Assembly: GCA_964291625.2 (NCBI GenBank)
Contig: OZ220090.1
Location: 928,001 to 992,000, forward strand
Direction of reading: 5' to 3'
Length of the DNA stretch: 64,000 bases
From: Candidatus Latescibacterota bacterium
GTDB lineage: Bacteria; Latescibacterota; UBA2968; UBA8231
A program made the translations under genes and the position numbers. A model generated the notes under the pieces. It was given only the letters and a program-made list of their open reading frames with translations. It had not been told where the DNA came from and ran no database searches. The first letter of the stretch is position 1. Each line of letters begins with the position of its first letter. Positions 17,914 through 34,984 of this stretch are shown in pieces.

Positions 17914-20900
17914 CTACCGGATCAGGGCGATCTTGCCGACGCGGACCTGGCCGCCGGCGATCAGCCGGTAGAGATAGAGGCCGGAGGCCGCCGGCCGGCC
18001 GTGCTCGTCGATGCCGTACCATTCCCGGGCGTGCCGCCCGGCCTCCAGGATCTCGCCTCCCACCAGCTCGGCCACGACCTGGCCGGCCACGTTGTAGACG
18101 GTCAGGGTCACCGGGCCCGCCTCCGGCAGCTGGAAGTGCAGGGTGGTGCTCGGGTTGAAGGGGTTGGGCGCAGGCCGACCGCCAAGGAGCCGGCCGGCCC
18201 CAGTCCGTCCATCCCGCCGACGGCCACCGGCTTGGCGACGACCACCACTTCGTCTTCGCCGGGCTCGGGGACCTCGCCCTCGGGCATCAGTTCGTCCTCG
18301 GTCTCTTCGTGGACCCCCCGGGCTCCTCCGGAGGCGCCGGGACCCAGGGCCGACGCCGAGACCTGGGCGGTGGTGCCGTAGCCGACAGCGTTACGGGCCC
18401 GCACGTGGAAGACGTACGAGGCGCCGTCGTCGAAGTTGCTCCACGACTTGCTGCGGGCGTCGGCCCCGCCGGCGCGGCGGTACCAGCCGCGCCAGTTCTC
18501 GTCCCCGGTCTTCTTGTAGCGGTAGTAGTAGTGCAGGACGGGCGAGCCATTGGCCGGCGCCGCGCCCCAGGTCAGCTCCATGAATCCGTTGCCGCCCTGC
18601 CGGTCGGTGGCCAGGTTCGTCGGCGCCCCGGGCAAGGTGGCCGGCGTCGCCGAGGCGCTGGAGGCGGCCCCGTCGCCGACGCTGTTGTGGCCCCGCACCT
18701 CGAAGGCGTACGACGTGCCGTTGGTCAGCCCGGTCACCGTCGTGTCGCGGGCGCTGCCGGCGCCGGGCACGGCCGTCCAGCCCGCGCCCGCGCGGCGGAT
18801 GTCATAGCGGTCGACGGCGGCGCCCCGGCCGTCGGCCGCCCCCCAGGAGAGGGCGACCTGCGCGTTGCCGCGCACGGCGCGGAAGCTTGGCGGCGCCTTG
18901 GGCGTGTTCGCCCGCACGACGCCGGACCGGCCGGCCGCGCTCTTGCCCGAGCCGTGGTTGTCCGTGTAGCTGACCGACGCCTCCAGACGCTTGCCGACAT
19001 CGGAAGCCGGCACGGTGTAGCGGTACGACTGCACCGAGGAGGCCTGGCCGGCGGCGCCGCTTTCGGTACTCCAGGACCAGGTCGGCCCGGTGATGCCTCC
19101 GTCCTCGTCGGTGAGGGTGGCCGTGACATGCTCTCCCACCTTGGGACGGCCGCGATCCAGGGTGACGACCCCCGGGTCGTCGGCGTTGGTCACCGTCACC
19201 GTCACCGGACGACTCGCCGACGCCGACCCGTCGGTGACCTGCACGGTCACGCTGTAGGAACTCTTGGCCTCGAAGTTGGGCGCACTGTTGAATCTCAGCG
19301 ATCGGGACGACCCGGTACCGGACAGCTCGCGGAAGTCACTGGCGTCGGTCCCCGCCCGCGACCACGTGAGCGGGAGCGTCGCATCGCAGGCGCTCGAACG
19401 CGTGACCCTGTAGGTGCCCACCGATCCGGTGCCGTTCTCGGCGTAGTTCACATCGGTCGAGCCCGACAGAGACAGGACACAGGGCACCGGGGTCCCGTCG
19501 ATGCCCGCCGCCAGGCTCCGGCCGGCGCCGTTGGCGGCCCGGATCTCGAAGCGGTAGGGCACGTCGTTGTCGAGCCCCGGAACCGTCACCGACGTACCCG
19601 CCGCGCCCCCGCTGTCCTCCCACGCCGTCTGCGACTTTTTCCGGTACCAATACCGATACCCCGTGATCGTCGAGCCGCAGTTGTCCGGGGCTCTCCAGGA
19701 CAGCGAGACCCGCCGGTCGGCCCCCGTCGATCTCAGACCGGTCGGCGTTCGCGGGGTGTTGGCGGCCACCGCCGCCGAGGTCAGGGTGGCCGTATTCCGG
19801 TCCGAGGCCCGATCCCCGTACCTCACGGTCACCCGCAGGGTCTTCCCCACGCTCGAATTGGCCGGCAGGTAGCTCCGGGTCGTGGAGGTCCCGGCCGAAC
19901 CGCTGGCCGCCGCGACCTGCGGCTCCCACTCCCATCCGTAGGTGAAAGTCGGCGGAGTCGTCGGAGATGCGGAAGCCTCCGTATTGATCCCGGCGTCCTC
20001 GTCCTTGAGGGTGGCGTTCACATGGGCGCACGTCATCGGCGTGGATGGGGACAGGGTGATCGTGCCCGCCTCGGGCCGGTTGGTCACCGTCACCGTCACC
20101 GGCTTGCTCGAGGACGCCTCCGGCGAGCCGTCGTCGGTGGCCACGACCGTGACCTTGTAGCTGTTGTCGGTGTCCGCATCGTCGGCCGACTCGAAGTTTG
20201 GTATCGAGCCGAAGCGCAAAGCGCCGCTGTCGGAGGGATCCTGGAAGTCGGCGGCGTCCGCGCCCAAGAGACTCCAGGTGACGCTGTCCTCTTCCGGGTC
20301 GGTGGCGGTGTAGCTGGCCACCGTAGCCGTGGTGGGGGTGTTCTCGGGCACCGACTTGCTGGACGGCCCCGTGATCACCGGCGGCTCGTTGACGTCGGTC
20401 ACCCGCACCGACCTCGGGAAAGTGCCCGCGCTGCCGGACGGATCGCTCACCCGGATCGTGACGGAATAGATGCGCTTCGCCTCGTAGTTGGGCGCCGAGA
20501 CGAAGTGCAGGGACCTCTGGTTGGGGTGCCCGGTCACAGCGCGCAGCTCCTTGAAGCTGCTGGCGTCCGAGCCCGTCCGGCTCCACGTCAGAGGGCCGCA
20601 GAGGGAACTGGCCGACGCCTCGTACACCCCGACCGTGGGCGTCGAGTTCTCCGGTACGTCCGTCTTTGAGACTTCCGAGACCGTGATCACGCATTCCGGG
20701 TCCGCCTCCGGCGTGGCCGAGGCCGGGCTCGAGGCCGGCCCTTCGCCCACCGGATTGACGGCCCGCACCTCGAAGGTGTACCCGGTGCCGTTGTCCAGCC
20801 CCGTGACGGGGTGGCTCGTGGCATCGCCGGCGATCGGCGGGGTCTCGGGCCACGCCGACCAGGTGGACCCGGCCGTGTGGGCGCTGTCCCGGTAGGCATA

Positions 20901-23900
20901 CCCGGTGATCCACGCCCCGTTGCTGTCGGCCGCGGTCCAGCGCAGGGTCACCCGGCCGTCGCCGGCCGTCGCCTGCAGAGACCCAGGCGCCCCCGGCACG
21001 TTGGCCCGCACCGCCGCCGTGGTGTCGCTGACCGCCCGGTCCGGACCATGCCCGTCGGTATAGGTGACCTTGGCCAGCAGGCGCTGGCCCTTGACCCGGT
21101 CCTCCACCGTGTAGCGCTGGCTCTGCGCCGGGGCCTGCCTCCGCTGCCGGGTGGACGACGCGCCGTCCAGCTCTTCCCAGCTCCAGCGGTCGTTGGTCAC
21201 GCCTTGGTCCGGGTCGGTCAGGGTGGCCGTCAGGTGCATGCCCACCCTCGGCTCCATCGTGTTCAGGGTCACCCGCCCCGCCTCCGGCGCGTTGGTCACC
21301 GCCACCGTCATGTCGTGGGAAGCCGAGGCCGCCGGCTCCCCGTCGTCTTTGACCGTGAGCGTCACCTCGTAGAAGTTGTCCTCGTCCGCGTCGTCCGGCG
21401 CCTCGAAGTCGGGCGCCGTCTCGAAGTAGAGGGTGTCCCCCCGCACCTTGAACAACCCGACATCGGCCCCCGCGTGCGACCAGGCGATGGCCTGGCCTTC
21501 CGGGTCCGTGGCCGACAGCGTGGCCACCGAGTCGGTGCGGTGTTCGGCGAACCACACCGTGTCAGGTTCCGTGATCACCGGGGGCCGGTTGCCGCGGTTG
21601 CCCTGCGGCGTCGCCCGGACACTGTCCGCCCGGCCGTAGCCCTCGCCATTGTGGGCCCACACCTGGAACACGTACTCGATGTCGTTGTCCAGAGCCGTCA
21701 CCGTCGTGTCCCGGGCGCTGCCCCCGCCCGGGACCGCCGACGAGTCGCGGCCGGCCCAGTTCGGGCCGCTGCGGTAGCGCAACTCGTAGCGGTCGATGGC
21801 CGAACCGTGGGCCGCCGCCGCCGTCCAGGTCAGCTCCACCTGCCCGTCGCCCGCCTCGGCCTGCAGGTCGCCTGGAGGGCCCGGCACGTTGGCCCGCACC
21901 GCCGCCGTGGTGTCGCTGACCGCCTGGTCCGGACCATGCCCGTCGGTATAGGTGACCTTGGCCAGCAGGCGCCGGCCCTTGACCCGGTCCTCCACCGTGT
22001 AGCGCTGGCTCTGCGCCGGGGCCCGCGTCCGCTGCCGGGCGGACGAGGCGCCGTCCAGCTCCTCCCAGCTCCAGCGGTCGTGGGCCACGCCTTGGTCCGG
22101 GTCGGTCAGGGTGGCCGTCAGGTGCATGCCCACCCTCGGCTCCATCGTGTTCAGGGTCACCCGGCCCGCCTCCGGCGCGTTGGTCACCGCCACCGTCATG
22201 GCGTGGGAGGCCGAGGCCGCCGGCTCCCCGTCGTCGGTGGCCGTGAGCGTCACCTGGTAGAAGTTGTCCTCGTCCGCGTCCGCCGGCGCCTCGAAGTCGG
22301 GCGCCCTGAAGGCGGGCGTCATCTTGAAGGAAAGGGTGTCCCCCCGCACCTTGAACAACCCGACATCGGCCCCCGCGTGCGACCAGGCGACGGCGTCGTC
22401 TTCCGGGTCGGAGGCCGACAGCGTGGCCACCGAGTCGGTCCGGTTTCGGCGAACCACACCGTGTCCGGCGCCGTGATCACCGGGGGCCGGTTGCCCCGGT
22501 TGCCCTGCGGCGTCGCCTCCTTCTCGGCCGGGGTCCCGAGGTTCACCCGGTTCCGGGCGGCCACCCGAAACCCATACGGCGTGCCGTTGCTCAGCTCGGT
22601 GATCGTCGTGTCCCGCGCTGTCGAATCCCCCGGCACCACCGACCAGGTCACGTCCGACCAGTCCACCTCGGCCCCCGAGTGGCTCTTGGGGGCATACTGA
22701 ACCTCGTAGGCGGTGATCGGTGCGCCGTTGGAGTCGGCCGCGGTCCAACTCAACGCCAACTGCCCGTCGCCGGGCTCCGCCGTGAAGTCCCCCGGCGCCC
22801 GAGGCGCCCCCGCCGGCGTGACCGTCGTGTCCACCGACGCCCCCGCCGCCGCCCCGGTGTAGGCCCGCACCTCGAAGGTGTGGGCCACCCCGTTGCTCAG
22901 TTCCTGGGGCAGATAGCGAGTCCAGCCCTTCAGGAAATCGAACCAGGCCGTCGTGTCCCCGGGGACGATCTCGCGGTAGTGATAACCCAGCAGAGGCGAC
23001 CCGCCTGTCGTCCCCGCCGCCGCCCAGGTCAACAATACCTGTCCGTCGCCAGCCTCCGCTTTGAAATTCCGCGGCGCCGACGGCCCCACCGGGATGTCCG
23101 TCGACCAGGCCCCCGCCGGGCGCGACCGCACCCGGTACCGGTAGCGGTACTTCACGTCCAGGGGGTGGCGCTCCGTGGACGGGGTGTGCTGGAAAGTGAC
23201 TCTCATGTCGGCCGACGGCAGGCTCTCGTTGGCCAGCGTGGCCAGCCAGGCATACTCCGACCATCCGGACGTCCCTCTGACCAATTGCCGCTGGAACTCC
23301 AGCCGGTACCCGGCCGCGGCCGGGACCGCCTTCCAACGGACCTCGATCCCTTCGGCGCTTGCGTGAGCGCTCCCCTCTTTCGGGGCCGCAACCGGCGGCG
23401 GCAGCTTGGCGAAGCCGTGGCCCCAGGTGTTGTCCGGACTAGAGTGACGATCTGCCTTGGACTTCAGGTAATCGGCGATCTTCTTCGGGGTATCGTGGAT
23501 GTCGCCCAGCTCCTGGATCACCAGCGCCGCCAGACCCGCCACCCGGGGGGCGGCGATGCTCGTGCCCGACTCACCGCTCTCCAGGCCGCCGACGAGGTCA
23601 GGCTTGATGCGGCCGTCGGGTGTGGGCTCGGGGGCGGGGCCTCGGGCGCTGTAGGCCTTGATTCCAGGGGGATCGGACAGGTCGGCGGCCCCCACGGCCA
23701 GCATGCCCGTATTGGCGCTCTCCGCGGGATTGCCGATGCTGCCGGTCATACTGGCGTCCTGCCAGGGATCGGATCGACCCGAGAAATCTTGCAGTTGAAC
23801 CCATCCGGGAGAGCTGCCACGGAGTCTCCTCACACTCAACCAGTATTGGCCCGCCGACCAGATGGGGGACTCGGTATCCATTAGAATCTCCATCGGAACG

Positions 23901-25579
23901 GCACGATCTCCGGTCTGGGAGCCCGTTGCACTCCCAGCCAATCGCAGCCCCGATCCGGGTACATTGTGATACAGGAAGAGATCCAGATTGATCGCCGGGC
24001 CCGTCCAGGCGTCCTTCCAGCGCAACGCGAATCGGGGACCAGACGCATTCACGCGGATAGGGAGGCTGACTGTTGGTCCAGGAAACACCAGGTACCCGTC
24101 CGAGTCGAAGTTGGGTGAGTTCGAATACCAGGTGCGCTGAGCATCATTGCCCGCCGCGTTGACCCAGACGATCCCGGAGTTCACGGCGGTATCCACCAGC
24201 TTCAGGGGGCTGGCCATATTGGGCGACGTCCCATCTCCAGGTCCGTCCCAATGATTGTTGACCGAGTAATTGATCACCTGTACCCCATTCCGGATCATCC
24301 AATCAAGAGCCTGATTATTCTGAACTTGTCCCATTGTCTTGTGCGTCTTCGATATGTACAACTCCACATTGGGCGCAATGTCCAGAAGCGCTCGTGTGAC
24401 ACCTGTGCCATGTGGGTCCTCTCCGCAATCCCCAAGACCCGTGGAGTCAGCAACCGTATCTTCCTCGTTCGCATAGCAGTAGGTATGGTACGACGGGTTC
24501 AGGTCCTCCAACGCCTCCATCAGGTCGCCGAAGCCATGGAAGCCAATGTCGAGGACACCCACCTTGATGCCGTCACCCCGGATCCCGGCGGTGCGCCAGG
24601 CCGTGGCCCCGTGCGCCGTCGAGGCCGTCGTTGACGACGACCCCTCGGACCGGCTATGCTGGGGGACGGCCTCCAACACCTCCCGGAGACGGATCACACC
24701 GGGCTGTTCCGACAGACGCACGAGGAGCGACACCGGCACGCGGGCCCAGAGAAGTCCTTGCACGCCATCCCCGCCATCGCTCCGCCAGGTGTTCGAGGCG
24801 ATGCCCCGGCCCTTGAGAAAGCGGGCTACCGTGTCGACGCTGTCCCGACTGTTCGTTTGTATCCTCACCGGAACGGTTGGGGTCGACCCTGGCCCGCCCT
24901 GACCGCTGACCGCCGACTGCCCCCCCGGGGACGAGGCCTGGTAGCCCTCGACACGGCTGTTGAGGGAGGACCCGAGCTCGGGATACTGGAGAGGCCGGGG
25001 CAGATCGTGCACGCTGAGGCCGGTCAGACCCGACAGCGATGACGCGTCTCGAAGCGGGTTGAAGGCGAGATACAGATCAGCGAGGTCGGTCAGACCCGAC
25101 AGCGACGACACGTCCGCGACCTCGTTGACCTGGAGGTTCAGAAAGGTCAGGTCCGTCAGACCCGACAAGGGCGTCACGTCCGCCACCGAGTTGCCCGCCA
25201 GGTGCAGCCACGTCAAGCCGGTCAGCCCTGACAGCGGCGACAGGTCGGAGACGTCATTGCGGTTGGACCAGGGCAATTGCTCGGGCCTCGGCCCAAGGTG
25301 CAGCCGGGTCAGCCCGGTGGCGTGCTCCAGGCCGGTCAGGTCGACGATGCCCGCGTCCGGTGCTTCCAAGGTGGTCAGCTCCGCCAGGGAGGCCGCGGGG
25401 ATCGGGTCGCCCGACGACAGGCCGAGGCTGTCCTCCAGCACCGCCCGCAGGGCGGCGTCCGGGACGGTGACTTCGTCTGCAGGGTCGTCCTGCGCCCACC
25501 CGGCCGGCAGGCCCGTCCAGGTCAGCCCGAGGGCCAACAGAATCGCAAAGCAATGCATGGTCTTCCTCTTCGGATGCAT
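17914..25579 (-). CDS. Giant secreted protein: signal, LRR, prodomain, S8 subtilisin protease, Fn3 and cadherin-like repeats, FlgD-Ig/T9SS-like C-terminal domain (two apparent 1-bp frameshifts at ~22445 and ~18175)
   Basis: Joins ORFs 22319-25594, 18108-23336 and 17914-18111. S8 triad VGVLDIG / HGTGV / GTSIAAP plus AAGN. Fn3 motifs (YTFEVRA), cadherin motifs (APDFEAP, TDVNEPP), tail PNPFNPSTT...SGLYLYRL...GKIALIR. The internal duplicate reads WFAEHRTD in frame where the first copy lacks one base. Alternative start 25558. Confidence 0.82.
20990..22513. repeat. Near-identical internal duplication (~620 bp x2) of a cadherin-like + Ig-like module
   Basis: ~20990-21613 and ~21880-22513 both encode GNRPPVIT...TLNTMEPRVGMHL...AVRANVPG. 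Confidence 0.85.
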
Positions 25580-25612
25580 GTTGTGGATTCTCAACGGCAG
25601 CTGCTCCCCGCC

Positions 25613-26755
25613 CTACGGGAAGAGGCTCTTGATCGCGCCCCAGGACGATGCTTCCACTCCGGTGCCAGGAAGGTCGGAACCACACCCGTCCTGGCCACCC
25701 GCACCGGAATCACCGCTTTCGCCTCCAGTTGACGTGGCAGGAACCGACTCCAGTATCGTCTCGACGCGAGCCACGGAGGGCAGTTCGGACAAAGGCACCA
25801 GCAGCGGGATGGGTACACAGGCCCAGACCGTGTTGCGCACCCAGTCGGCGTCTTCGCTGCTGCGACGGCCGATGTGCACTCTGGTGATACAGTGGTCCTC
25901 CAGGAAACGGACGGCTCGGTCGATGCTGCTCTCTTCCGTGCCCAACAGAATACCCACGGGGACTGAATGGGGGGGCTTCGACGGGTCCCAGCTGTAGAAA
26001 TCCGGCTTTGACGGGTCCCAGTCGTCGGAAGTCGGAAATCGCGAGACGCAGCGACCTGGATCGATTTCGTCCGTCGTCCGGCCCCACCGGAGCGCCTCCT
26101 TGTAGCTATAGACAAGACCGTTCAAGGAACTATCCAGCTTCGGCCACAGGTTGGGACCCGCGAAAATGGGATAGATCCACAGCGTTCCCGTTCCCGTCCG
26201 CGGCAGCCAATCGTCCAACTCCAACGTCGGGATGAGATTGTACCCCATATGCAACTCCCTGAGCCTGGTCAGGCCCGACAGCGACCTCAGGTCCGAGATC
26301 CTGTTTACTTCCACGTTCAGCGACCTCAGGTTGACCAGGCCCGACAGGGGCGTCACGTCCTCCACCGAGTTGCCCGCCAGGTCCAGCCAGGTGAGGCCGG
26401 TCAGTCCCGACAGCGGCGACAGGTCGGAGACGGCGTTGGTGTTGGTCCAGGGGTCTCCGTTGGTGTTGGTCCAGGGGTCTCTCGTGATGGCCCCCGGCCC
26501 CAGGTCCAGCCGGGTCAGCCCGGTGGCGTGCTCCAGCCCGGTCAGGTCGACGATGCCCAAATCGGGCGCCTCCAGAACGATCAGCTTCGCCAAGGAGGAC
26601 GCCGTGATCGAGTCGCCCGCCGCCAGACCGAGGCTGTCCTCCAGCACCGCCCGCAGGGCGGCGTCGGGCACCGTCACCTCGGCCGGGGAGTCGTCCTGCG
26701 CCCAAGCGGCCGGCAGGGCCGTCAAGATCGTCAGGAGACAGATGCGGATACGCAT
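25613..26755 (-). CDS. Secreted LRR + prodomain-like protein with SWGAIK tail (type A)
   Basis: Signal MRIRICLL..AWAQ, LRR cap VPDAALRAVLEDSLGL, internalin-type LRRs, DDWDPSKP domain, ends SSWGAIKSLFP. Confidence 0.85.
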   Translation of the reverse strand: MRIRICLLTILTALPAAWAQDDSPAEVTVPDAALRAVLEDSLGLAAGDSITASSLAKLIVLEAPDLGIVDLTGLEHATGLTRLDLGPGAITRDPWTNTNGDPWTNTNAVSDLSPLSGLTGLTWLDLAGNSVEDVTPLSGLVNLRSLNVEVNRISDLRSLSGLTRLRELHMGYNLIPTLELDDWLPRTGTGTLWIYPIFAGPNLWPKLDSSLNGLVYSYKEALRWGRTTDEIDPGRCVSRFPTSDDWDPSKPDFYSWDPSKPPHSVPVGILLGTEESSIDRAVRFLEDHCITRVHIGRRSSEDADWVRNTVWACVPIPLLVPLSELPSVARVETILESVPATSTGGESGDSGAGGQDGCGSDLPGTGVEASSWGAIKSLFP

Positions 26756-26846
26756 GGGATCATCCTCCCGGGGCAAGGACAGTCGTGGGACCCACTTGCC
26801 GGGCCCTTGAATGGTGCGTCACAAGCAAGACCATCGCCGCGCTCCC

Positions 26847-28146
26847 CTACCGGATGAGGCCCAGCTTGCCGAATGTACAGCTCCACGTCCGGGGCGATGT
26901 CGAGCAGGGCTTGCGTCACATTCGTGCCATGCTCGTTCCTCAAGCGTACACCTTCCATGGCTCCGCAGTTGGCAAGACTCGCGTTGTTCCCGTCGAATGC
27001 CTGAGCATCCGGGCCCGAAAAGCAGTAGGTATGCCACGACGTACTCTGCTTGCCGAGTTGCGTCATCCGCGCTTGGAAGTCATCGAAGCCGCCGACATCG
27101 ATCACACCCACCTTGATACCGGCGCCACGGATCCCGGCCTCGCGCCACGCGGTGGCCCCGTGCGCCGGGGCGGCCGTGATCGTCGACGGCGTCGACGGCG
27201 GCGTCCCGGATCCGCCCTGGTGAGGGATGGCCTCCAGCACTTCCCTGACACTGATCACCCCCGGCTGCTCCGACAGACGCACCAGAAGCCGCAAGGGCAC
27301 ATGGGCCCAGAGAAGTCCCTGCACGCCGCTTCCTCCATCGCTCCGCCAGGTGTCCGAGGAGATACCCTGGCCATCGAGAAAGCGGGCGACCGTATCGACG
27401 CTGTCCCGGCTGTTCGTGCGGATTCTCACCGGGACAACGGAGTCCGACCCTTGGTGACCCTGGCCCCGGGCGGACCTTCCCTCGGATGACGAGCCCTCGC
27501 TCTCCCCCACCTGACGGCTGAGCGAGGAACCCAACTTGGGATGCCGGGGAGGCCGGGGGAGGTCATACACGGTGACGTCGGTCAGGCCCGACAGCGACGA
27601 CGCATCCTGCAAAGGATTGAAGGCGAGATACAGATCGGTGAGGCCGGTCAGACCGGACAGCGAGTCAGCGTCCGTAATTTCGTTGACCTGGAGGTTCAGA
27701 AAGGTCAGACCGGTCAGGCCCGACAGGGGCGTCACGTCCGCCACCGAGTTGCCCGCCAGGTGCAGCCACGTCAGACCGGTCAGGCCGGACAACGGCGACA
27801 GGTCGGAGATGGCGTTGCGGTTGGCCCAAGGGTCCCCCGTGTCGACCGGCCCCAGGTTCAGCCGCGTCAGCCCGGTGGCCGAGTCCAGCCCGGTCAGGTC
27901 GACGATGCCCTTGTCCGGCGCCTCCAGGGCGGTCAGCTTCGACAGCGAGGCCGCAGTTATGGGCTCGCCCGCCGACAGGCCGAGGCTGTCCTCCAGCACC
28001 GCACGAAGAGAGGCGTCCGGGACCGTCACCTCGTCCTGGGATTCGCTTTGCGCCCAACTGGCCGGCAGGCCGGTCAAGCTCAGCCCAAGAGTCACCACAA
28101 TCCAGAAAGCGTGCATGATCTTCGTATGCTGATTCATCATCTTCAT
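26847..28146 (-). pseudogene. Internally deleted paralogue of the giant LRR-S8 gene
   Basis: LRR + prodomain + S8 Asp (VGVIDVG) and His (HGTNV) motifs. Homology stops at ELYI (~26875); the next bases read GKLGLIR* in another frame, matching the last residues of the FlgD-type tail. Confidence 0.75.
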
Positions 28147-28180
28147 CTATAGCGGGTGAGGGTGGGCAATTCGGTCCGGC

Positions 28181-29256
28181 CTACCGGAAAACGGTCCTTG
28201 AGCGCGCCCCAGGACGCCCCTCCGACCGAGGAGATATCAGGGGGAGCGTCCCCGGAGGGGTAGACGGAATTGTGCACGTACTCGATCAGTGCGACCTGGG
28301 ACAGTTCGGACAAGGGCTCCACCAGGGGCAGGGGCAAGCAAGCCCAGACGTGGTGGGAGTAGCGGGGGGGGGCCGTGGATGAGGAAGCGAGTGATGCCGT
28401 GGTCCTCGAGCCAGCGGACGATCACGTCGACGCTCTCCTGCGTCTCTGGATCTACGAAAATGTCCGTGGCGAGCGAGGGGGCCGGCTTCGAGAAGTCCCA
28501 AGGAGGGAATCTTGTGACGCAGGGCCCCTCGGGATCGACCCGGTCCGTCACCCAGCCCAAGCGGAGCGCGTTCTTGTATTCATGGACCGCGTTTTCGCAA
28601 CGGCCGGACAGCTTGGGATTCAGTCGGACACGGGGGAGAATCCAGCGCCCGGAGAAAATCAGATAGGTTGTTCCTGCCACCCGCGCCATGCGATCCTCCG
28701 GCAAGGGCCACTCGTACAGAATCGGGTTGAAAGCGACAAACAGATCCCTGAGCTTTCTCAGGCCGGACAACGACGAGAAATCCGAGATGTAGTTGACTTC
28801 CAGGTTCAGCCACCTCAGCTCGCTCAGGCCGGCCAGCGGCGTCACGTCCGCCACCGAGTTGCCCGCCAGGTCCAGCCAGGTCAGAGCGGCCAAACCTGAC
28901 AGCGGCGACAGGTCGGAGACGGCGTTGGTGTTGGCCCAGGGATCCGCCATGGCCCCCGGCCCCAGGTTCAGCCGCGTCAGCCCGGTGGCCGAGGCCAATC
29001 CGGTCAGGTCGACGATGCCCTTGTCCGTGGCCTCCAGCGCGGTCAGCGTCGCCAGCTCGGACGCAGTGATCGGATCGCCCGCCGACAGGCCGAGGCTGTC
29101 CTCCAGCATCGCACGAAGAGAGGCGTCCGGGACCGTCACCTCGTCCTGGGATTCAGGTTGCGCCCACCCCGGCGCCAAGCCTGTCAAGGTCAGCCCAAGG
29201 GTCACGGCAATCCAGAAAGCGAGCATGGTCGTCGTATGCTGATTCATCATCTTCAT
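28181..29256 (-). CDS. Secreted LRR + prodomain-like protein with SWGALK tail (type B; frameshift at the G-run 28363-28372)
   Basis: Near-identical to 29296-30357 through EWPLPEDRMARV...; the C-terminus CLPLPLVEPLSELS...SWGALKDRF lies in a shifted frame. Confidence 0.75.
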
Positions 29257-29295
29257 TCTTCATCAGAGTGGGTGAGGGAGTAGACGGGGTCCGGC

Positions 29296-30357
29296 CTATT
29301 GGGAACGGTGCTTGATTGCGCCCCAAGACACCCCTCCGAGGGAGGAGGGAACGGGGTAGAAGTACGGAGACCAATAGATCAGGGCGACGCTGGGCAGTTC
29401 GGACAAGGGCTCCACCAGCGGCAGGGGCAAGCAAGGCGAGACCCAGGGGGAATCGGGGTATCTGCGCCTGGGCTCGTGGATGACAAAGTCCGTGATGCCG
29501 TGGTCCTCGAGCCAACCGACGACCACGTCGACGTTCTCCTGCGGACCCGGGTCTACATAGATCTCCAAGGAGAGCGCCGGGGCCGGCTTCGAGAGGTCCC
29601 AGGCAGGGAAACTGCCGAGGGCGGTGACGCAGGGCGCCTCCAGATCCACCCGGTCCGTCACCCAGCCCAAGCGGAGCGCGTTCTTGTATTCGTGGACTAC
29701 GTTTTCGCAACCCTCGGACAGCTTGGGATTCAGTCGGACACGGGGGAGAATCCAGCGCCCGGAGAAAATCAGATAGGTTGTTCCTGCCACCCGCGCCATG
29801 CGATCCTCCGGCAAGGGCCACTCGTACAGAATCGGGTTGAAAGCGACAAACAGATCCCTGAGCTTTCTCAGGCCGGACAACGTCGAGAAATCCGAGATAT
29901 AGTTGACTTCCAGGTTCAGCCACCTCAGCTCGCTCAGGCGGGCCAGCGGCGTCACGTCCTCGATCGAGTTGCCCGCCAGGTCCAGCCAGGTGAGAGCGGC
30001 CAAACCTGACAGCGGCGACAGGTCGGAGATGGCGTTGGTGTTGGCCCAGGGATCCGCCATGGCCCCCGGCCCCAGGTTCAGCCGCGTCAGCCCGGTGGCC
30101 GAGGCCAATCCGGTCAGGTCGACGATGCCCTTGTCCGTCGCCTCCAGCGCGGTCAGCTCCGCCAGGGAGGCCGCGGGGATCGAGTCGCCCGACGACAGGC
30201 CGAGGCTGTCCTCTATCACCGCCCGCAACGAGGCGTCCGGGACGGTGACTTCGTCTGCAGGGTCGTCCTGCGCCCACCCGGCCGGCAGGCCCGTCCAGGT
30301 CAGCCCGAGGGCCAACAGAATCGCAAAGCAATGCATGGTCTTCCTCTTCGGATGCAT
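29296..30357 (-). CDS. Secreted LRR + prodomain-like protein with SWGAIK tail (type B)
   Basis: Signal peptide, LRR cap, LRRs, NPKLSEGCENVVHEYK, ends VSWGAIKHRSQ. Confidence 0.85.
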   Translation of the reverse strand: MHPKRKTMHCFAILLALGLTWTGLPAGWAQDDPADEVTVPDASLRAVIEDSLGLSSGDSIPAASLAELTALEATDKGIVDLTGLASATGLTRLNLGPGAMADPWANTNAISDLSPLSGLAALTWLDLAGNSIEDVTPLARLSELRWLNLEVNYISDFSTLSGLRKLRDLFVAFNPILYEWPLPEDRMARVAGTTYLIFSGRWILPRVRLNPKLSEGCENVVHEYKNALRLGWVTDRVDLEAPCVTALGSFPAWDLSKPAPALSLEIYVDPGPQENVDVVVGWLEDHGITDFVIHEPRRRYPDSPWVSPCLPLPLVEPLSELPSVALIYWSPYFYPVPSSLGGVSWGAIKHRSQ

Positions 30358-30390
30358 GTTGTGGATTCTCAACGGCAACTGCTCCCCGCC

Positions 30391-31553
30391 CTACCGGAAA
30401 AGACTCTTGATCGCGCCCCAGGACGACGCTTCCACTCCGGTGCCAGGAAGGTCGGAACCACACCCGTTCTGGCCACCCGCACCGGAATCACCGCTTTCGC
30501 TTCCAGTAGAGGTTTGAGGAAAGGACTCCGATGGCGGCCAGACCCGAGCCACGGAGGGCAGTTCGGACACGGGCACCAGCAGCGGGATGGGTAGGCAGGC
30601 GTATACTGCAGTGCGCACCCAGTCGGCGTCTTCGCTGCTGGGTCGGCCGATGCGCACTCTGGTGATACAGTGGTCCTCCAAGAAACGGACGACCATGTCG
30701 ATGCTGCTCTCTATGTCGATGCTGCTCTCTTCCGTGTGTAACAGACGGATGCGCACGGGGACTGAATGGGGTGGCTTCGACGGGTCCCAGACGTAGAAGT
30801 CCGGCTTCGACGGGTCCCAGTCGTCGGAAGTCGGAAATCGCGAGACGCAGCGACCTGGATCGACCTCGTCCGCGTCCGGCCCCACCGGAGCGCCTCCTTG
30901 TAGCTATAGACAAGATCGTTCAAGGAACTATCCAGCTTCGGCCACAGGTTGGGACCCGCGAAAATGGGACAAATCCACATCGACGTTCCCGTCCGCGGCA
31001 GCCAATCGGCCGACTCCAACCTCGGGATGAGGTTGTACCCCATATGCAGATCCCTGAGCCTGGTCAGGCCCGACAGCGACCTCAGGTCCGAGATCTTGTT
31101 GACTTCCACGTTCAACCACCTCAGGTTGACCAGGCCCGACAGGGGCGTCACGTCCTCCACCGAGTTGCCCGCCAGGTCCAGCCAGGTGAGTGCGGTCAGG
31201 CCCGACAGCGGCGAGAGGTCGGAAACGTCATTGCTGTTGGTCCAGGGGTCTCTCGTGATGGCCCCCGGCCCCAAGTCCAGCCGGGTCAGCCCGGTGGCGT
31301 GCTCCAGCCCGGTCAGGTCGACGATGCCCGCGTCCGGTGCTTCCAATGAGGTCAGCTTCGCCAGGGAGGACGCCGTGATCGGGTCGCCAGCCGACAGGCC
31401 GAGGCTGTCCTCCAGCACCGCCCGCAACGAGGCGTCCGGCACCGTCACTTCTGGGGTGTCGTCCTGCGCCCAACCGGCCGGCAAACCCAGCAGGGTCAGC
31501 CCAAGGGCCAGCAGTATCGTACTGCAGTGCATTTTCTTCCTCTTCGGTTGCAT
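30391..31553 (-). CDS. Secreted LRR + prodomain-like protein with SWGAIK tail (type A; 1-bp frameshift ~30873)
   Basis: Joins ORFs 30711-32003 (from ATG 31553) and 30391-30885. The paralogue at 26070 has tccgtcgtcc where this copy has tccgcgtcc. Confidence 0.78.
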
Positions 31554-31599
31554 TGTGTGGAGTTCCAAAGGGCAGCTGCCCGCCCTACCGGAAAAGACT

Positions 31600-32727
31600 C
31601 TAGATCGCGCCCCAAGACGACACCTCCACTCCGGTGCCAGGAAGGTCGGAACCGCACCCTTCCTGGCCACCAGCACTAGCATCGCTGCTCTCGCTTCCAG
31701 TGGAGCTGGCAGGAAAGGAGCCCGGTGGCATCCTGACGCGAGCCACGGAGGGCAGGTCGGACAGAGGCACCAGCAGGGGCACCGGCACACAAGCGTAGAC
31801 TGTGTTCCAGCCCTGCTCTCCGCTGGGGACTCGGGAGATGAAGAAGTCCCTGACGATGATGCAGTAGCCCTCGAGGAAGGCGACGACTCTGTCGATGCTG
31901 CTCTCTTCCCTGTCAAGCAGATTCTTGATGCGGACCGAAGCTGAATGGGGTGGCTTCGATGGGTCCCAGATGAAGAAATCCGGCTTCGACGGGTCCCAGT
32001 CATCGGAAGTCGGAAATCGCCGGAAGCAGCGACTTGGATCGACCACGACCTCGTGCGTCGTTCGGCCCCACCGGAGCGCCTCCTTGTAGCTCATGACCAG
32101 ACGGTTCAAGGGACCGTCCAGCGTCGGCCACAGATCAGAGCCCGAGAAATCGAGATAGACGTCCACTCTCTGCTGCCACGGCGGCAGCCAATCGGCCAAC
32201 TCCCACGTCGGTACAAGGTTGTACCCCATATACAGCTCCCGGAGCTTAGTCAGGCCCGACAGCGACCTCATATCCTGGATCTTGTTGACTTCCACGATCA
32301 GCACGGCCAAGCGGGTCAGGCCGGACAGCGGGGTCACGTCCTCCACCGAGTTGCCCGCCAGGTCCAGCCAAGTCAGTGCGGTCAGACCCGACAGCGGCGA
32401 GAGGTCGGAAACGTCATTGCTGTTGGTCCAGGGATCCCTCGTGACGGCCCCCGGCCCCACGTCCAGCAACGTCAGCCCGGTGGCGTACTCCAGCCCGGTC
32501 AGGTCGACGATGCCCAGGTCTCTCGCCTCCAGTTTGGTCAACGCCGCCAGCGCCGCGGCCGTGATCGGAGCCCCTTCCACCAGGCCGAGGCGGTCTTCCA
32601 GCACCGCCCGCAGGGCCGCGTCCGGCACCGTCACCTCGGCCGGGGGGTCGTTCTGCGCCCAGGCGCCGGGCAGGCCCAGGTGAATCGAGGCGAACACCAA
32701 AGGGAGTAGAATCCGGAAACCGTGCAA
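31600..32727 (-). CDS. Secreted LRR + prodomain-like protein (type A) whose tail is cut by an AAG->TAG change
   Basis: TTG 32727 with GGAGG. Ends SSWGAI-TAG-AGT CTT TTC CGG-TAG, whereas paralogues read WGAI-K-SLFR*. Confidence 0.82.
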   Translation of the reverse strand: MHGFRILLPLVFASIHLGLPGAWAQNDPPAEVTVPDAALRAVLEDRLGLVEGAPITAAALAALTKLEARDLGIVDLTGLEYATGLTLLDVGPGAVTRDPWTNSNDVSDLSPLSGLTALTWLDLAGNSVEDVTPLSGLTRLAVLIVEVNKIQDMRSLSGLTKLRELYMGYNLVPTWELADWLPPWQQRVDVYLDFSGSDLWPTLDGPLNRLVMSYKEALRWGRTTHEVVVDPSRCFRRFPTSDDWDPSKPDFFIWDPSKPPHSASVRIKNLLDREESSIDRVVAFLEGYCIIVRDFFISRVPSGEQGWNTVYACVPVPLLVPLSDLPSVARVRMPPGSFPASSTGSESSDASAGGQEGCGSDLPGTGVEVSSWGAI

Positions 32728-32794
32728 GGTCTTTCCTCCGGTAGATGGTTTGCAGGAGTTTCTCGGGGCCGTCACGGCGCGTGACCTCCCCGTG

Positions 32795-33989
32795 CTACTT
32801 GAATCGGTCCTTCACCGCGCCCCAGGATACGCCTTCGAGCAGCGTGGGAGAGAGGGACTCGAACGGAATCACCACTTCGATCCTTCGGACGCCGGCCAGT
32901 TCGGACAGGGACGCCAGCAGCGGCAGGGGCACGCAGGCCTGGACATAGTAGTAGCTGACCCAGTAGGGGATGCCGTGGTCCTCCAGGAGGACCGTCACCA
33001 GCTCGACGGCCTCGTACTCCACTATGACCTCCACGTAGATGGAAGGAGCCGGCTTCGACGGATCCCAATCCCCGAAGTCGACGGGGAACTCGTCCTCGAA
33101 AAAGCAGGGCCCTCCCCCGACCCTGCTGGTCACTCTCCCCGCCTCGAGGGCCGCCTCGTACTGCTCGACAAAATGGTTCAGCCGGCCACGGAGCTTGGGA
33201 TACTTGTAAGGGGGGGCATCCGAACCGTATAGCTGGGCCTGCCCGGCCAGGGCGTGAGATCCACGTCCAGGTCGACATACAGCTCGGTCAGGCCGGTCAG
33301 GCCGGCCAGGGGGACACATCCACCACCGAGTTGTGCGCCAGATCCAGCATCAGCAAGCTGGTCAGGCCGGCCAGGGGCGATACATCCGAAATCTCGTTGC
33401 CTCTCAGGTCCAGCCAGGTCAGGCCGGTCAAGCCCGCCAAGGGCGACAAGTCCGAGATCTCGTTGCCTCTCAGGTCCAGCTTGGTCAGGCCGGTCAAGCC
33501 GGCCAAGGGAGATAAATCCGAAATCTCGTTGTCTCTCAGATTCAGCTTGGCCAGGCTGGTCAAGCCCGCCAAGGGAGACAAATCCGAAATCTGGTTGTCC
33601 CAGAGCGACAGAACGTCCAGGCCGCCCAGGCCGGCCAGGGGCGACAAGTCCGCAATCTCGTTGCCATAGAGTGACAGGACCTTCAGGCCGGTCAAGCCGG
33701 ACAAGGGAGCCAGACGCGAAATCGAGTTGCCCAAGAGGATCAGCCGTCTCAGCCCGGTGGCATGCTCCAACCCGGTGAGATCCACAATTCCCTTGTGGCG
33801 CGCATCAAGGACGGTCAGCTCGGCCAGATCAGCCGCCGTGATCGGCTCGCCCGCCACCAGACCGAGGCTGTCCTCCAGCACCGCCCGCAGGGCGGCATCC
33901 GGCACCGTCACCTCGGCCGGGGCGTCGTCCTGCGCCCAGGCGCCGGGCAGGGCCGTCAAGATCGTCAGGAGACAGATGCGGATGCGCAT
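32795..33989 (-). CDS. Secreted long-LRR + prodomain-like protein with SWGAVK tail (type C; apparent frameshifts ~33311 and ~33251)
   Basis: Joins ORFs 33297-33989 and 32795-33319; both shifts lie in C-runs. YPKLRGRLN..., GDWDPSKP, QACVPLPLL, VSWGAVKDRFK. Confidence 0.78.
33300..33760 (-). repeat. 66-bp tandem repeats encoding 22-aa internalin-type LRRs
   Basis: Repeated unit LTGLTxLxLRGNEISDLSPLAG. Confidence 0.88.
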
Positions 33990-34087
33990 GGGATCATCCT
34001 CCCGTGGGCAGGACAGTTGTGGGACCCACTTGCCGGGCCCTTGAATGGTGCAGGATGCGTCACAAGCAAGACCATCGCCGCACTCCC

Positions 34088-34649
34088 CTACCGGATGAGG
34101 TCCAGCTTGCCGACGTGTACTCCTTCGAGTGCAATTCCCGTTTGCCCGGCATCTCGGCCGGCGTCTCCGGCCCGCTGCACGTCGGGGCCCGGTTCACCGG
34201 CTTGGCGGTCTCCGTGTCGGGCTCGCCGTAGCCCTCCCGGTTTTGGCCCGCACCTCGAAGGTGTAGAGGGTGCCGTTGCTCAGACCCGTCAGCGTCGTGT
34301 CCCTGGCGGCGCCCTTGCCGGCGACCCTGTGCCAGTCGCGGCCCGTCCATCCCGACGCGCTGCGGTAGCGGTACCGGTACAGCTTCACCTCGGCCCCGTT
34401 GGGCGCCGCCTCCGTCCAGGTCACCACCTGCCGGTCGCCGGGATCGGCGGCCAGGGTCGCCGGGCCGGGCCCTCCGGCCGGCGCGACCTCTGCCGAGGCG
34501 GCGGCCCCGGCGCCTTCGCCCCACGCGCGCGCCTCCGCCTCTGTCGGTGGGACTCTTGCCCCTTGCATCCCCGGAAACCAGGCCCCGGCCCAGAGGACGC
34601 TCGATACCAGAAACACGGCCGCCAGGAACCACCATCCGCGAGCGCTCAT
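34088..34649 (-). pseudogene. Collapsed Fn3/cadherin surface-protein gene (signal + one Fn3 + terminal tail residues)
   Basis: Signal MSARGWWFLAAV, Fn3 (DTTLTGLSNGTLYTFEVRA), frameshift, VNRAP (start of a cadherin module), then VGKLDLIR* in another frame. Confidence 0.65.
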
Positions 34650-34984
34650 TGGCCTTTGATCCTTCCCAGGAGTTCCCTTCTATATCAGAAGGGCCAGGGG
34701 GGAGTGTGCCCGAAACCCGCTCCGCCTTGAGAGATTGGAATGGCGCCGCGGGGCTTCAAGCCCCCGGGGGGCCCTGCCCAGGAAGTCGGCCAAGTAGCCA
34801 TGCGCCGGGGGGTCGCTGGTCGATGTGACGCAGTCCCCTTGAATGTACTCCCATCCAAGTGTGAAACCGATGGAAATAAGCCCATTGGTTACGGTATTTT
34901 GATGAAAAAGTGACTTTCTGGAGATTCCACTTGGATAACCAGGCCGCGACCTGTTTCCTCTTTCCCCCTCCTGAGGCGACGACT

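Follow-up and report, generated by a model that had tools for sequence, protein, structure and literature searches.

The stretch of DNA analyzed here, referred to as the window, comprises 64,000 nt of a Candidatus Latescibacterota bacterium (GCA_964291625.2, contig OZ220090.1, positions 928,001 to 992,000), whose 5.9 Mb genome consists of two contigs, C2, which carries the window, and C1. The sequencing runs that contain the window are labelled as sponge metagenomes. On the minus strand, from 34649 down to 17914 as judged by open reading frame (ORF) analysis, lies an array of genes for six short leucine-rich repeat (LRR) proteins, together with a giant gene that encodes LRRs, a pro-region and a subtilase (S8) catalytic domain. 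The variable C-terminal domain of the short proteins is supported as a homologue of the N-terminal propeptide of subtilases by its sequence, by the position of its relatives before S8 domains and by its predicted fold. Our preferred reading, to which we give a probability of roughly 0.45, is that the short proteins are a trans-acting propeptide family that docks on the neighboring S8 domain as an inhibitor and/or folding helper, and that the locus is partly decayed in this genome. Three of the short proteins are named p387, p360 and p391, and the others are referred to by the coordinates of their genes (Table 1).

Propeptide homology of the C-terminal domain

An alignment of the C-terminal domain with the segment preceding S8 in the giant had been made by eye in the initial annotation, and this alignment proved to be real, with the motifs quoted for it present in the sequences. 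The 140 residues of the giant between the LRRs and S8 match the C-terminal domain of p387 with 31% identity over 142 aa (E 7.6e-12; this and the following E values are from BLASTP against a tiny database), and the same segment matches p391 (E 3.4e-7) and the C-terminal pieces of the 30391-31553 (E 1.2e-8) and 32795-33989 (E 5.7e-7) genes. For p360 the direct comparison with the giant gave an E value of 0.38, and its link is via p387, at 2.8e-19. The alignment comprises a conserved N-terminal helix motif, followed by beta1-alpha1 and then by a strongly conserved beta3-alpha2-beta4 block. Two nearly invariant cysteines and an inserted loop characterize the stand-alone subfamily, and both are absent from the cis propeptides. 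The C-terminal domains fall into three classes: class I (p387, 30391-31553 and p391), class II (p360 and 28143-29256) and class III (32795-33989 and a copy on contig C1).

A profile of the domain, built from eight copies and searched against 1.84 billion cluster representatives, matched 243 representatives at E ≤ 1e-3, 45 at E ≤ 1e-10 and 12 at E ≤ 1e-30. The 149 listed matches that were new were scanned against Pfam, and Peptidase_S8 was identified in 35 of them (18 of 91 at E ≤ 1e-4 and 17 of 58 at E ≤ 1e-5). Each of these 35 S8-bearing relatives has the domain N-terminal to S8, often as two copies in tandem, and the domain is also located directly before S8 in the giant, in a truncated gene of the array (p471, described below) and at loci L010 to L018. 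The remaining profile matches were short fragments, proteins consisting of LRRs plus the domain, or proteins with 2-6 tandem copies; among the metagenome proteins, P0015, P0023, P0036, P0052 and P0059 have 3-6 tandem copies and no Pfam-detectable protease. No Pfam family covers the domain, either in the window proteins or in the profile matches, and NCBIfam likewise has none for it. Judged from its sequence, the domain is an uncatalogued propeptide family.

The predicted structure is consistent with this assignment. The AlphaFold2 (AF2) model of the p387 C-terminal domain, based on a 47-sequence alignment, has a predicted local distance difference test score (pLDDT) of 77.5, rising above 90 in the core, and a predicted template modelling score (pTM) of 0.73. 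Its strands (E) and helices (H) are E66-73, H77-88, E95-100, E109-117, H118-125 and E130-135, and the model of the giant's pro-region has elements in the same order and topology (H11-23, E42-49, H52-64, E69-73, E82-89, H90-97 and E102-107). Structural comparison with VIA-align was run twice, on the top 1000 chains from Foldseek and, independently, on 48,161 representative chains of the PDB. The top of the 48,161 chains was the propeptide part of ProN-Tk-SP (3afg_B; Z 8.3, root-mean-square deviation (rmsd) 3.4, 87 residues aligned, model residues 1-137 against chain residues 11-108), which was the only chain with a Z of at least 8, the next chain being at 6.5. Further matches included the following: the PCSK9 prodomain (2w2n_P, Z 5.7; 2p4e_P, Z 5.6), chain B of the PAM protease (5.2), the inhibitor POIA1 (1v5i_B; Z 5.2, rmsd 4.7, 72 aligned), CspB (5.1) and pro-subtilisin E (5.1). 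Those that take in the leading helix of the model include the prodomains of Tk-SP, PCSK9, PAM and CspB, along with some PII-type regulators. In the Foldseek search of the PDB there was no match at E ≤ 1e-3, and the PCSK9 prodomain was at E 0.07-0.1. In the VIA-align comparison, the likeness of the model to solved subtilase propeptides is above that to other ferredoxin-like folds, by a modest margin, and the propeptide fold that had been expected from comparison with subtilisin prodomains was the fold predicted. Since a Z near 8 is modest, the propeptide assignment draws on the combination of fold, homology and position before S8.

The C-terminal tag, the giant protease and the locus

The initial annotation described the short proteins as ending in a short tail with no protease domain. 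A protease domain is indeed absent, and the tail has a defined motif, [ST]WGx[IVLM]K, which makes it a C-terminal tag rather than an undefined end. In a scan of the 26,431 stop-to-stop frames in the genome that are 100 aa or longer (7.7 million residues), the motif was present within the last 16 residues of 53 frames compared with only 2 interior occurrences, and it was designated a C-terminal tag on that basis. It often follows TAVE-like residues and is on many unrelated secreted proteins of the genome. The SWG tail as a whole, of ~10-18 residues, has no domain fold and no match in Pfam or NCBIfam. At the locus the tag was identified in p387, p360, and the 30391 and 32795 pieces (window positions 25613-25660, 29296-29340, 30391-30440 and 32795-32840, respectively); in p391 the K and the four residues that would follow it are lost to a stop within the tag, and in 28143-29256 the tag is followed by 17 extra residues. 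Between the domain and the tag, the class I short proteins share a low-complexity linker (25640-25720, 30420-30500 and 31630-31700) in which a single Cys lies within a G-C-G-S-D motif. This linker is conserved in relatives as well (P0001-P0008), and the other classes are without it.

Further observations support the view that each short protein is a finished product, with a C-terminal tag of its own. Nineteen distinct clusters at 50% identity end in the tag (representative search, rows P0006 and P0010-P0158), and in three further proteins with a domain match (P0020, P0064 and P0021) the motif is near the end but not at it. Relative to orthologues in a related metagenome-assembled genome (MAG), the ratio of nonsynonymous to synonymous substitution rates (dN/dS) was 0.40-0.48 for the whole proteins, which therefore appear to be under constraint, though loose, and 0.36-0.50 for the propeptide-like part alone.

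The giant has a different tail. Its last 80 residues match the type IX secretion system (T9SS) sorting domain TIGR04183 at 31.8 bits against a cut-off of 23 (the matching piece is at 17917-18390). Since 102 tails of this type and two sortases of the PorU type (572 and 537 bits; cut-off 420) are encoded in the genome, export of the giant by a T9SS is credible. Pfam identified LRR_4, Peptidase_S8 (5.5e-21), at least five fn3 domains and one Cadherin domain in the giant. The His, Asn and Ser motifs of its S8 domain align to subtilisin BPN', and the Asp motif, as read from the sequence, precedes them, so that the Asp-His-Ser triad and the oxyanion Asn are all there in S8 order; a long insert lies between the Asn and Ser motifs. 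The genome holds five S8 genes, and the giant is the only one of them with this propeptide. Two frameshifts interrupt the giant, both of them downstream of the S8 domain: a 1-bp gap at ~22445, inside a repeated FN3/cadherin unit, and a gap in a CCC run at ~18165, which parts the body of the protein from its T9SS tail. In a related strain in sequencing run X3 an extra C behind 22445 restores the frame, and the orthologous giant frame is open for 5,092 aa in a related MAG (L005). Since the LRRs of the giant are N-terminal of its propeptide, autoprocessing would release LRRs and propeptide together. The short proteins accordingly mimic the whole pro-region and not a targeting domain of the mature enzyme, which differs from the picture drawn initially.

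All six short LRR paralogues and the giant were found at the positions and on the strand first reported for them, with Pfam domains in agreement (LRR_4/LRR_8 score over the cut-offs in all of the short paralogues). A seventh member of the array, p471, had been missed. In addition, 25613-26755 and 29296-30357 are the only fully intact short genes, and each of the others has a frameshift or a stop in the tag. The order of transcription is a small gene for a signal peptide and FN3 domain, five short LRR genes, p471, the sixth short LRR gene and the giant, with spacers of 0-50 nt between the genes of the array.

Table 1. Coordinates of the array genes and of the mapped domains of the giant in the window
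Feature	Position	Strand	Evidence
Small gene at the head of the co-oriented array; signal peptide and one FN3	34194..34649	-	Pfam fn3 3.5e-7
Short paralogue; longer LRR array, class III domain, two frameshifts (C5 run at ~33315, C7 run at ~33205)	32795..33989	-	
Short paralogue p391; class I domain, premature TAG (31600-31602) inside the C-terminal tag	31600..32775	-	
Short paralogue; class I domain 80% identical to that of p387, 1-bp deletion at ~30893	30391..31553	-	
Short paralogue p360, intact; class II domain, SWGAIK tag	29296..30357	-	
Short paralogue; class II domain, frameshift at C9 run at ~28383, extra residues after the tag	28143..29256	-	
p471; LRR, propeptide and first third of S8 (Asp and His motifs only), ends at ~26872	26731..28146	-	
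Short paralogue p387, intact; signal peptide, LRR, class I propeptide-like domain (25616-26161), SWGAIK tag	25613..26755	-	
Giant; signal peptide, LRR, propeptide, S8, FN3/cadherin-like repeats, T9SS type-A C-terminal domain; in three frames	17914..25579	-	
Pro-region of the giant	24587..25000	-	Profile match 3.3e-42; AF2 topology
S8 catalytic domain of the giant	23360..24577	-	Pfam; PDB sequence alignment to subtilisin BPN'
T9SS type-A sorting domain of the giant, out of frame with the body	17929..18168	-	TIGR04183 31.8 bits

The GC content is 63-66% across the LRR/propeptide array (24-34 kb) and 70-75% in the flanks. A gene for a hybrid GAF-HisKA-HATPase-receiver-winged-helix regulator (34910-37363, plus strand) is divergent from the head of the array, and its product is a candidate for regulating the array. 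Low GC (64-67%) recurs at 52-58 kb, in a second stretch that includes a gene for an ankyrin-repeat protein (52614-53552, plus strand; Ank 2.4e-57).

Distribution, mosaicism and lesions

The arrangement of the locus is conserved in relatives, which in public collections are MAGs labelled Candidatus Latescibacterota and one labelled Gemmatimonadaceae. At four loci in two related MAGs (L003, L004, L005 and L006), 1-4 short genes of the LRR-propeptide-tag type are directly upstream of, and co-oriented with, a long LRR-propeptide(-S8) frame. These comprise one short gene before a frame of >1,111 aa with the S8 Ser motif (L003), one before a frame of 1,268 aa (L004), one before a frame open for >3,667 aa (L005) and four, one of them frameshifted, before a frame of 781 aa (L006). 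At a further locus, L002, three short genes in tandem are at a contig end, and no long frame was seen there. Intact orthologues of all three domain classes are present in the relatives. Outside the lineage, two distinct arrangements were found among 11 metagenome loci (L008 and L009, which are alike, and L010), in which a short ORF without LRRs ends at the domain (3114-3746 in L008/L009 and 947-1939 in L010), ~60 nt upstream of a propeptide-S8 ORF that begins at 3809 and 2002, respectively. Stand-alone copies beside the protease may thus be a wider habit of this S8 clade. The search of relatives that the initial annotation called for recovered short genes upstream of a long frame at four further loci, but the domain was matched in only 3 of 41 related genomes, this genome included. 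Because of this, and because the domain was found in 1 of 9 other genomes of the same genus, the locus was classified as accessory; given the low GC as well, it is possibly an accessory, perhaps transferred, island.

The sequences of the array also bear on how the family may have arisen. Over their first 45 residues the proteins pair in a manner other than by C-terminal class (giant and p360, 98%; p387 and 33989, 93%; p471 and 29256, 80%), from which it follows that the cassettes have recombined. The propeptide of p471 is 68% identical to that of the giant. From ~26872, however, the p471 sequence is 92% identical to a leader of ~120 nt located upstream of 33989 and then runs into the start codon of p387; as the leader replaces the S8 sequence at this point, we interpret p471 as a protease gene cut by a cassette junction. 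The two copies of the leader (26756-26875 and 33990-34110) each precede a short gene, and the leader is probably a promoter or 5' untranslated region of the duplicating cassette. Taken together, the truncated p471 and the mosaic 5' ends indicate that the family arose from the 5' part of the protease gene, through segmental duplication and recombination that are still reshuffling it. The class III LRR and propeptide-like unit on contig C1 (L001, C1:3996001-4006000; frame 3998629-4001604, plus strand) is fused behind dockerin-like and YWTD-propeller repeats. After it a second LRR cap begins, and no S8 is located nearby. The same open frame includes, close to its start, an in-frame T9SS tail, and three neighboring genes of another family end in an SWG-type tag.

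Altogether, six frameshifts, one stop inside a tag and one truncation were counted in the 16.7 kb of the locus, the frameshifts being the two in the giant and the four listed in Table 1. Four of the six are in C runs inside the coding sequence of surface proteins (the C9, C7 and C5 runs of Table 1 and the C3 run at ~18165), which are a typical site of long-read error, and no single public record spans the whole stretch. These facts raise the question of whether errors of assembly or polishing in a region rich in repeats produced the array or its frameshifts, which we consider very improbable given the following. The contigs assembled in Logan from run X1, which is probably the source sample, show 0 differences to the unique parts of the giant, to the p471 remnant (26731-28146) and to five of the six short genes; at 22445 they agree with the window and are without the extra C seen in X3; the C9 site is covered without a gap by contigs of both X1 and the independent run X2; and similar tandem arrays are present in two other MAGs. 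That the array would be an assembly artefact, a condition under which the initial proposal was to be abandoned, is therefore not borne out. The frameshifts are also not a general property of the assembly, as only 2 of the 102 T9SS tails in the genome are in frames of <200 aa, one of them being that of the giant, and so the lesions cluster at this locus. The poly-C frameshifts could represent slipped-strand phase variation, real decay or homopolymer error (Logan contigs are unable to show minor length variants), and we infer that the locus is decaying or switched off in this strain. Some other signals were discounted. Apparent joints among the run contigs have short sides (20-30 letters) between paralogous repeats and were attributed to repeat cross-matches and not to rearrangements. 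Contigs of RNA library X22 matched 31834-32082 and 20199-20361 with 0 differences but were not counted as transcription, as they are possibly from DNA and give neither strand nor level. A diversity-generating or programmed-frameshift mechanism was considered for the breaks, for which no supporting feature was found beyond the homopolymers.

Candidate functions and relation to known systems

Trans-acting propeptides are a classic means of subtilase control, and our preferred reading places the array among them. The short proteins would be Sec-exported and consist of two modules, an internalin-like LRR domain and a free-standing subtilase propeptide homologue, each copied from the pro-region at the N terminus of LRR-propeptide-S8 proteases of one clade, with a sorting-type tag, SWGxIK, in the place of the protease. 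The propeptide-like domain would dock on the S8 domain of the giant T9SS protease-adhesin as the cis propeptide does and, acting in trans, would tightly inhibit the protease and/or help it to fold, thereby setting when and where it is active, with the LRR part giving a second binding surface. In this genome the system would be partly decayed or off (frameshifts affect the giant and three short genes, a fourth short gene has a stop in its tag, and p471 is a truncated remnant), and it would be intact in relatives. Homology and synteny, as read from sequence, are the solid parts of this argument. A co-fold of the giant's S8 domain (431 aa) with the p387 domain (150 aa) reached the mark set for an interaction, with a score of 0.45 (runs of 0.56, 0.45 and 0.38), while the best of three controls scored 0.00; the runs agree in at least 68% of contacts, with a partner pLDDT of at least 72. 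The mark is reached by 116 of 157 solved complexes and by 2 of 215 mismatched pairs. The co-folding that the initial annotation called for thus gives weak support, for the domain of p387.

A number of observations weigh against this reading. The co-fold pass is in a weak band, since just 18 of the 157 solved complexes passed with scores ≤0.60 and both of the passing mismatches fell there as well, and with propeptide-subtilisin complexes among the solved structures it may reflect likeness only. A Z of 8.3 is about the typical best score for VIA-align, and many proteins share the ferredoxin-like fold; in Foldseek on its own, ACT and PII domains ranked first and ferredoxin-like folds were not told apart. 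The domain profile had no significant match to PDB sequences, the best being at E 0.32 (the only entries of note there were non-significant matches to procarboxypeptidase activation domains), and Inhibitor_I9 (PF05922) had no match at E ≤ 0.01 in 12 proteins. The stand-alone domains are far diverged, being 22-35% identical to the cognate propeptide and having the insertion and the Cys pair, and the acidic beta4 residue conserved in the cis family is, as read from alignments, kept in only some copies. The capping role of this residue is known only from other subtilases (PMC6993865). Six or seven copies per single S8 of the clade in the genome do not fit a simple 1:1 regulation, the presumed target gene is itself frameshifted twice, and the distribution among related genomes is patchy. 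Finally, the LRRs, being N-terminal of the propeptide, would leave with it and are thus not simply the targeting domain of the mature protease.

Several of these observations would be expected if the short proteins were host- or surface-binding, 'eukaryotic-like' LRR proteins in which the propeptide-like domain is an inherited stalk or binding module that regulates no subtilase, and this is the alternative that we take most seriously, while judging it unlikely. It would account for the strong divergence from the cis propeptide and the added Cys pair, for the many copies per protease, and for the C1 paralogue in which the LRR-propeptide unit is fused to a YWTD propeller with no S8 nearby. It is also in line with the habitat, since the runs with the stretch are sponge metagenomes and the relatives are sponge-type MAGs, with LRR, ankyrin, WD40 and FN3 proteins described as typical of sponge-associated Latescibacterota (PMC12993501), and with an ankyrin protein encoded in the same window. 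It leaves unexplained, however, why conservation within the domain is highest in the propeptide core (beta3-alpha2-beta4), why the short genes are directly upstream of LRR-propeptide-S8 at five loci in three genomes, and why stand-alone copies without LRRs precede propeptide-S8 genes on other metagenome contigs. The same adjacency bears on the suggestion that the proteins are secreted inhibitors of foreign subtilases, either host proteases of the proprotein-convertase type or those of competitors, to which the LRRs would bring them. The propeptide fold is a proven inhibitor scaffold (PMC6993865), three divergent domain classes in one array fit several targets, dN/dS values of 0.4-0.5 are high for housekeeping proteins, and the habitat is host-associated; but direct evidence is lacking, the conserved location beside the bacterium's own S8 of the same clade suggests that the target is the bacterium's own as well, and the domains derive from the propeptide of that very clade. 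We regard a foreign target as distinctly improbable.

Slightly less probable still, in our view, is that the short genes are non-functional, decaying by-products of segmental duplication of the 5' end of the protease gene. The density of lesions in the 16.7 kb, their clustering here in relation to the T9SS tails of the rest of the genome, the patchy distribution and the p471 junction, which shows how truncated copies arise, are all in keeping with such an origin. It does not readily accommodate the intact orthologues of all three classes in relatives, their dN/dS of 0.4-0.5 and not ~1, the tag and Cys pair that the short genes gained and kept, the 19 tag-terminated clusters, or the frame-restoring base in the giant of strain X3. 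An extension of the trans-acting model can also be imagined, and we mention it as speculation with little probability: the short proteins might be swappable heads that dock non-covalently on the giant's S8 via the propeptide fold, much as the prodomain of PCSK9 stays bound, and replace the cis LRR-propeptide after autoprocessing, which would gate the protease and vary the LRR surface shown to the sponge host. Cassette recombination and poly-C slippage (at C9, C7 and C5) would then choose among the heads, making the locus a combinatorial, phase-variable host-interaction system.

With respect to known systems, the initial annotation had stated that no described system has this architecture. This has to be qualified, as stand-alone propeptide-like inhibitors of subtilases (MEROPS I9) have been described; those named in PMC6993865 are all eukaryotic, namely POIA1, yeast PBI2, Arabidopsis SPI-1, TgMIC5 and Plasmodium SUB1-ProM, and the gene of the last adjoins subtilase genes (same source). 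The short genes resemble SUB1-ProM in being encoded beside a subtilase gene, and POIA1 of Pleurotus is among the structural matches of the p387 domain. Unlike these five, which are small, single-domain and eukaryotic, the proteins described here are bacterial and have the domain fused behind LRRs; they further differ in the extra N-terminal helix, the inserted loop with the Cys pair, the SWGxIK tag, the tandem paralogues of three classes and the absence of a Pfam I9 match. Among cis propeptides the closest in structure is that of Tk-SP (Thermococcus kodakarensis, 3afg), although identities to the propeptides of Tk-SP, PCSK9, CspB and pro-subtilisin E are only 13-19%, there is no link at the level of hidden Markov models, and in the short proteins no catalytic domain follows. 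The PCSK9 prodomain, made in cis, stays permanently bound, and the docked propeptide turns the complex into a binding device. Here, unlike in PCSK9, a trans-encoded copy with LRRs would have to dock, for which the support is the weak co-fold.

The LRR half is reminiscent of internalins, with an N-terminal cap, 22-residue LRRs and partial matches to NCBIfam internalin models over the LRR region. The best score to the class 1 internalin models (NF033186-NF033190) was 64.9 bits against cut-offs of 1050-1700, with only the LRR region matching, and the short proteins differ from internalins in having no LPXTG or GW anchor and in the propeptide fold of their C-terminal half. LRR proteins have been reported in sponge Latescibacterota MAGs (PMC12993501). 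The giant is like T9SS type-A cargo (Por_Secre_tail, TIGR04183) in its C-terminal domain, and the short paralogues end instead in the SWG tail. No description of the LRR fusion, of a bacterial tandem array or of the SWG tag was found in the literature searched, which largely excludes subscription journals, and to this extent the original statement stands. What sets the short proteins apart is that they are bacterial, are fused to LRRs, end in the SWG tag, occur as a tandem array of several classes and belong to an uncatalogued sequence family, while stand-alone propeptide inhibitors as such are of a known kind.

Our results indicate that a large, uncatalogued propeptide family serves a clade of giant multidomain S8 proteases from metagenomes, and that the propeptide has been repeatedly released as a separate bacterial gene product, here with LRRs and a new C-terminal sorting tag and kept beside the protease gene. 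In p471 and its cassette junction the locus offers a snapshot of how such genes arise. If the short proteins are trans-acting inhibitors, they would suggest a testable explanation of how the very large surface proteases of uncultured sponge symbionts are kept silent or targeted, and would be a source of natural, modular protease inhibitors; if they are not, the family would still be a distinctive marker of the surface biology of host-associated Latescibacterota.

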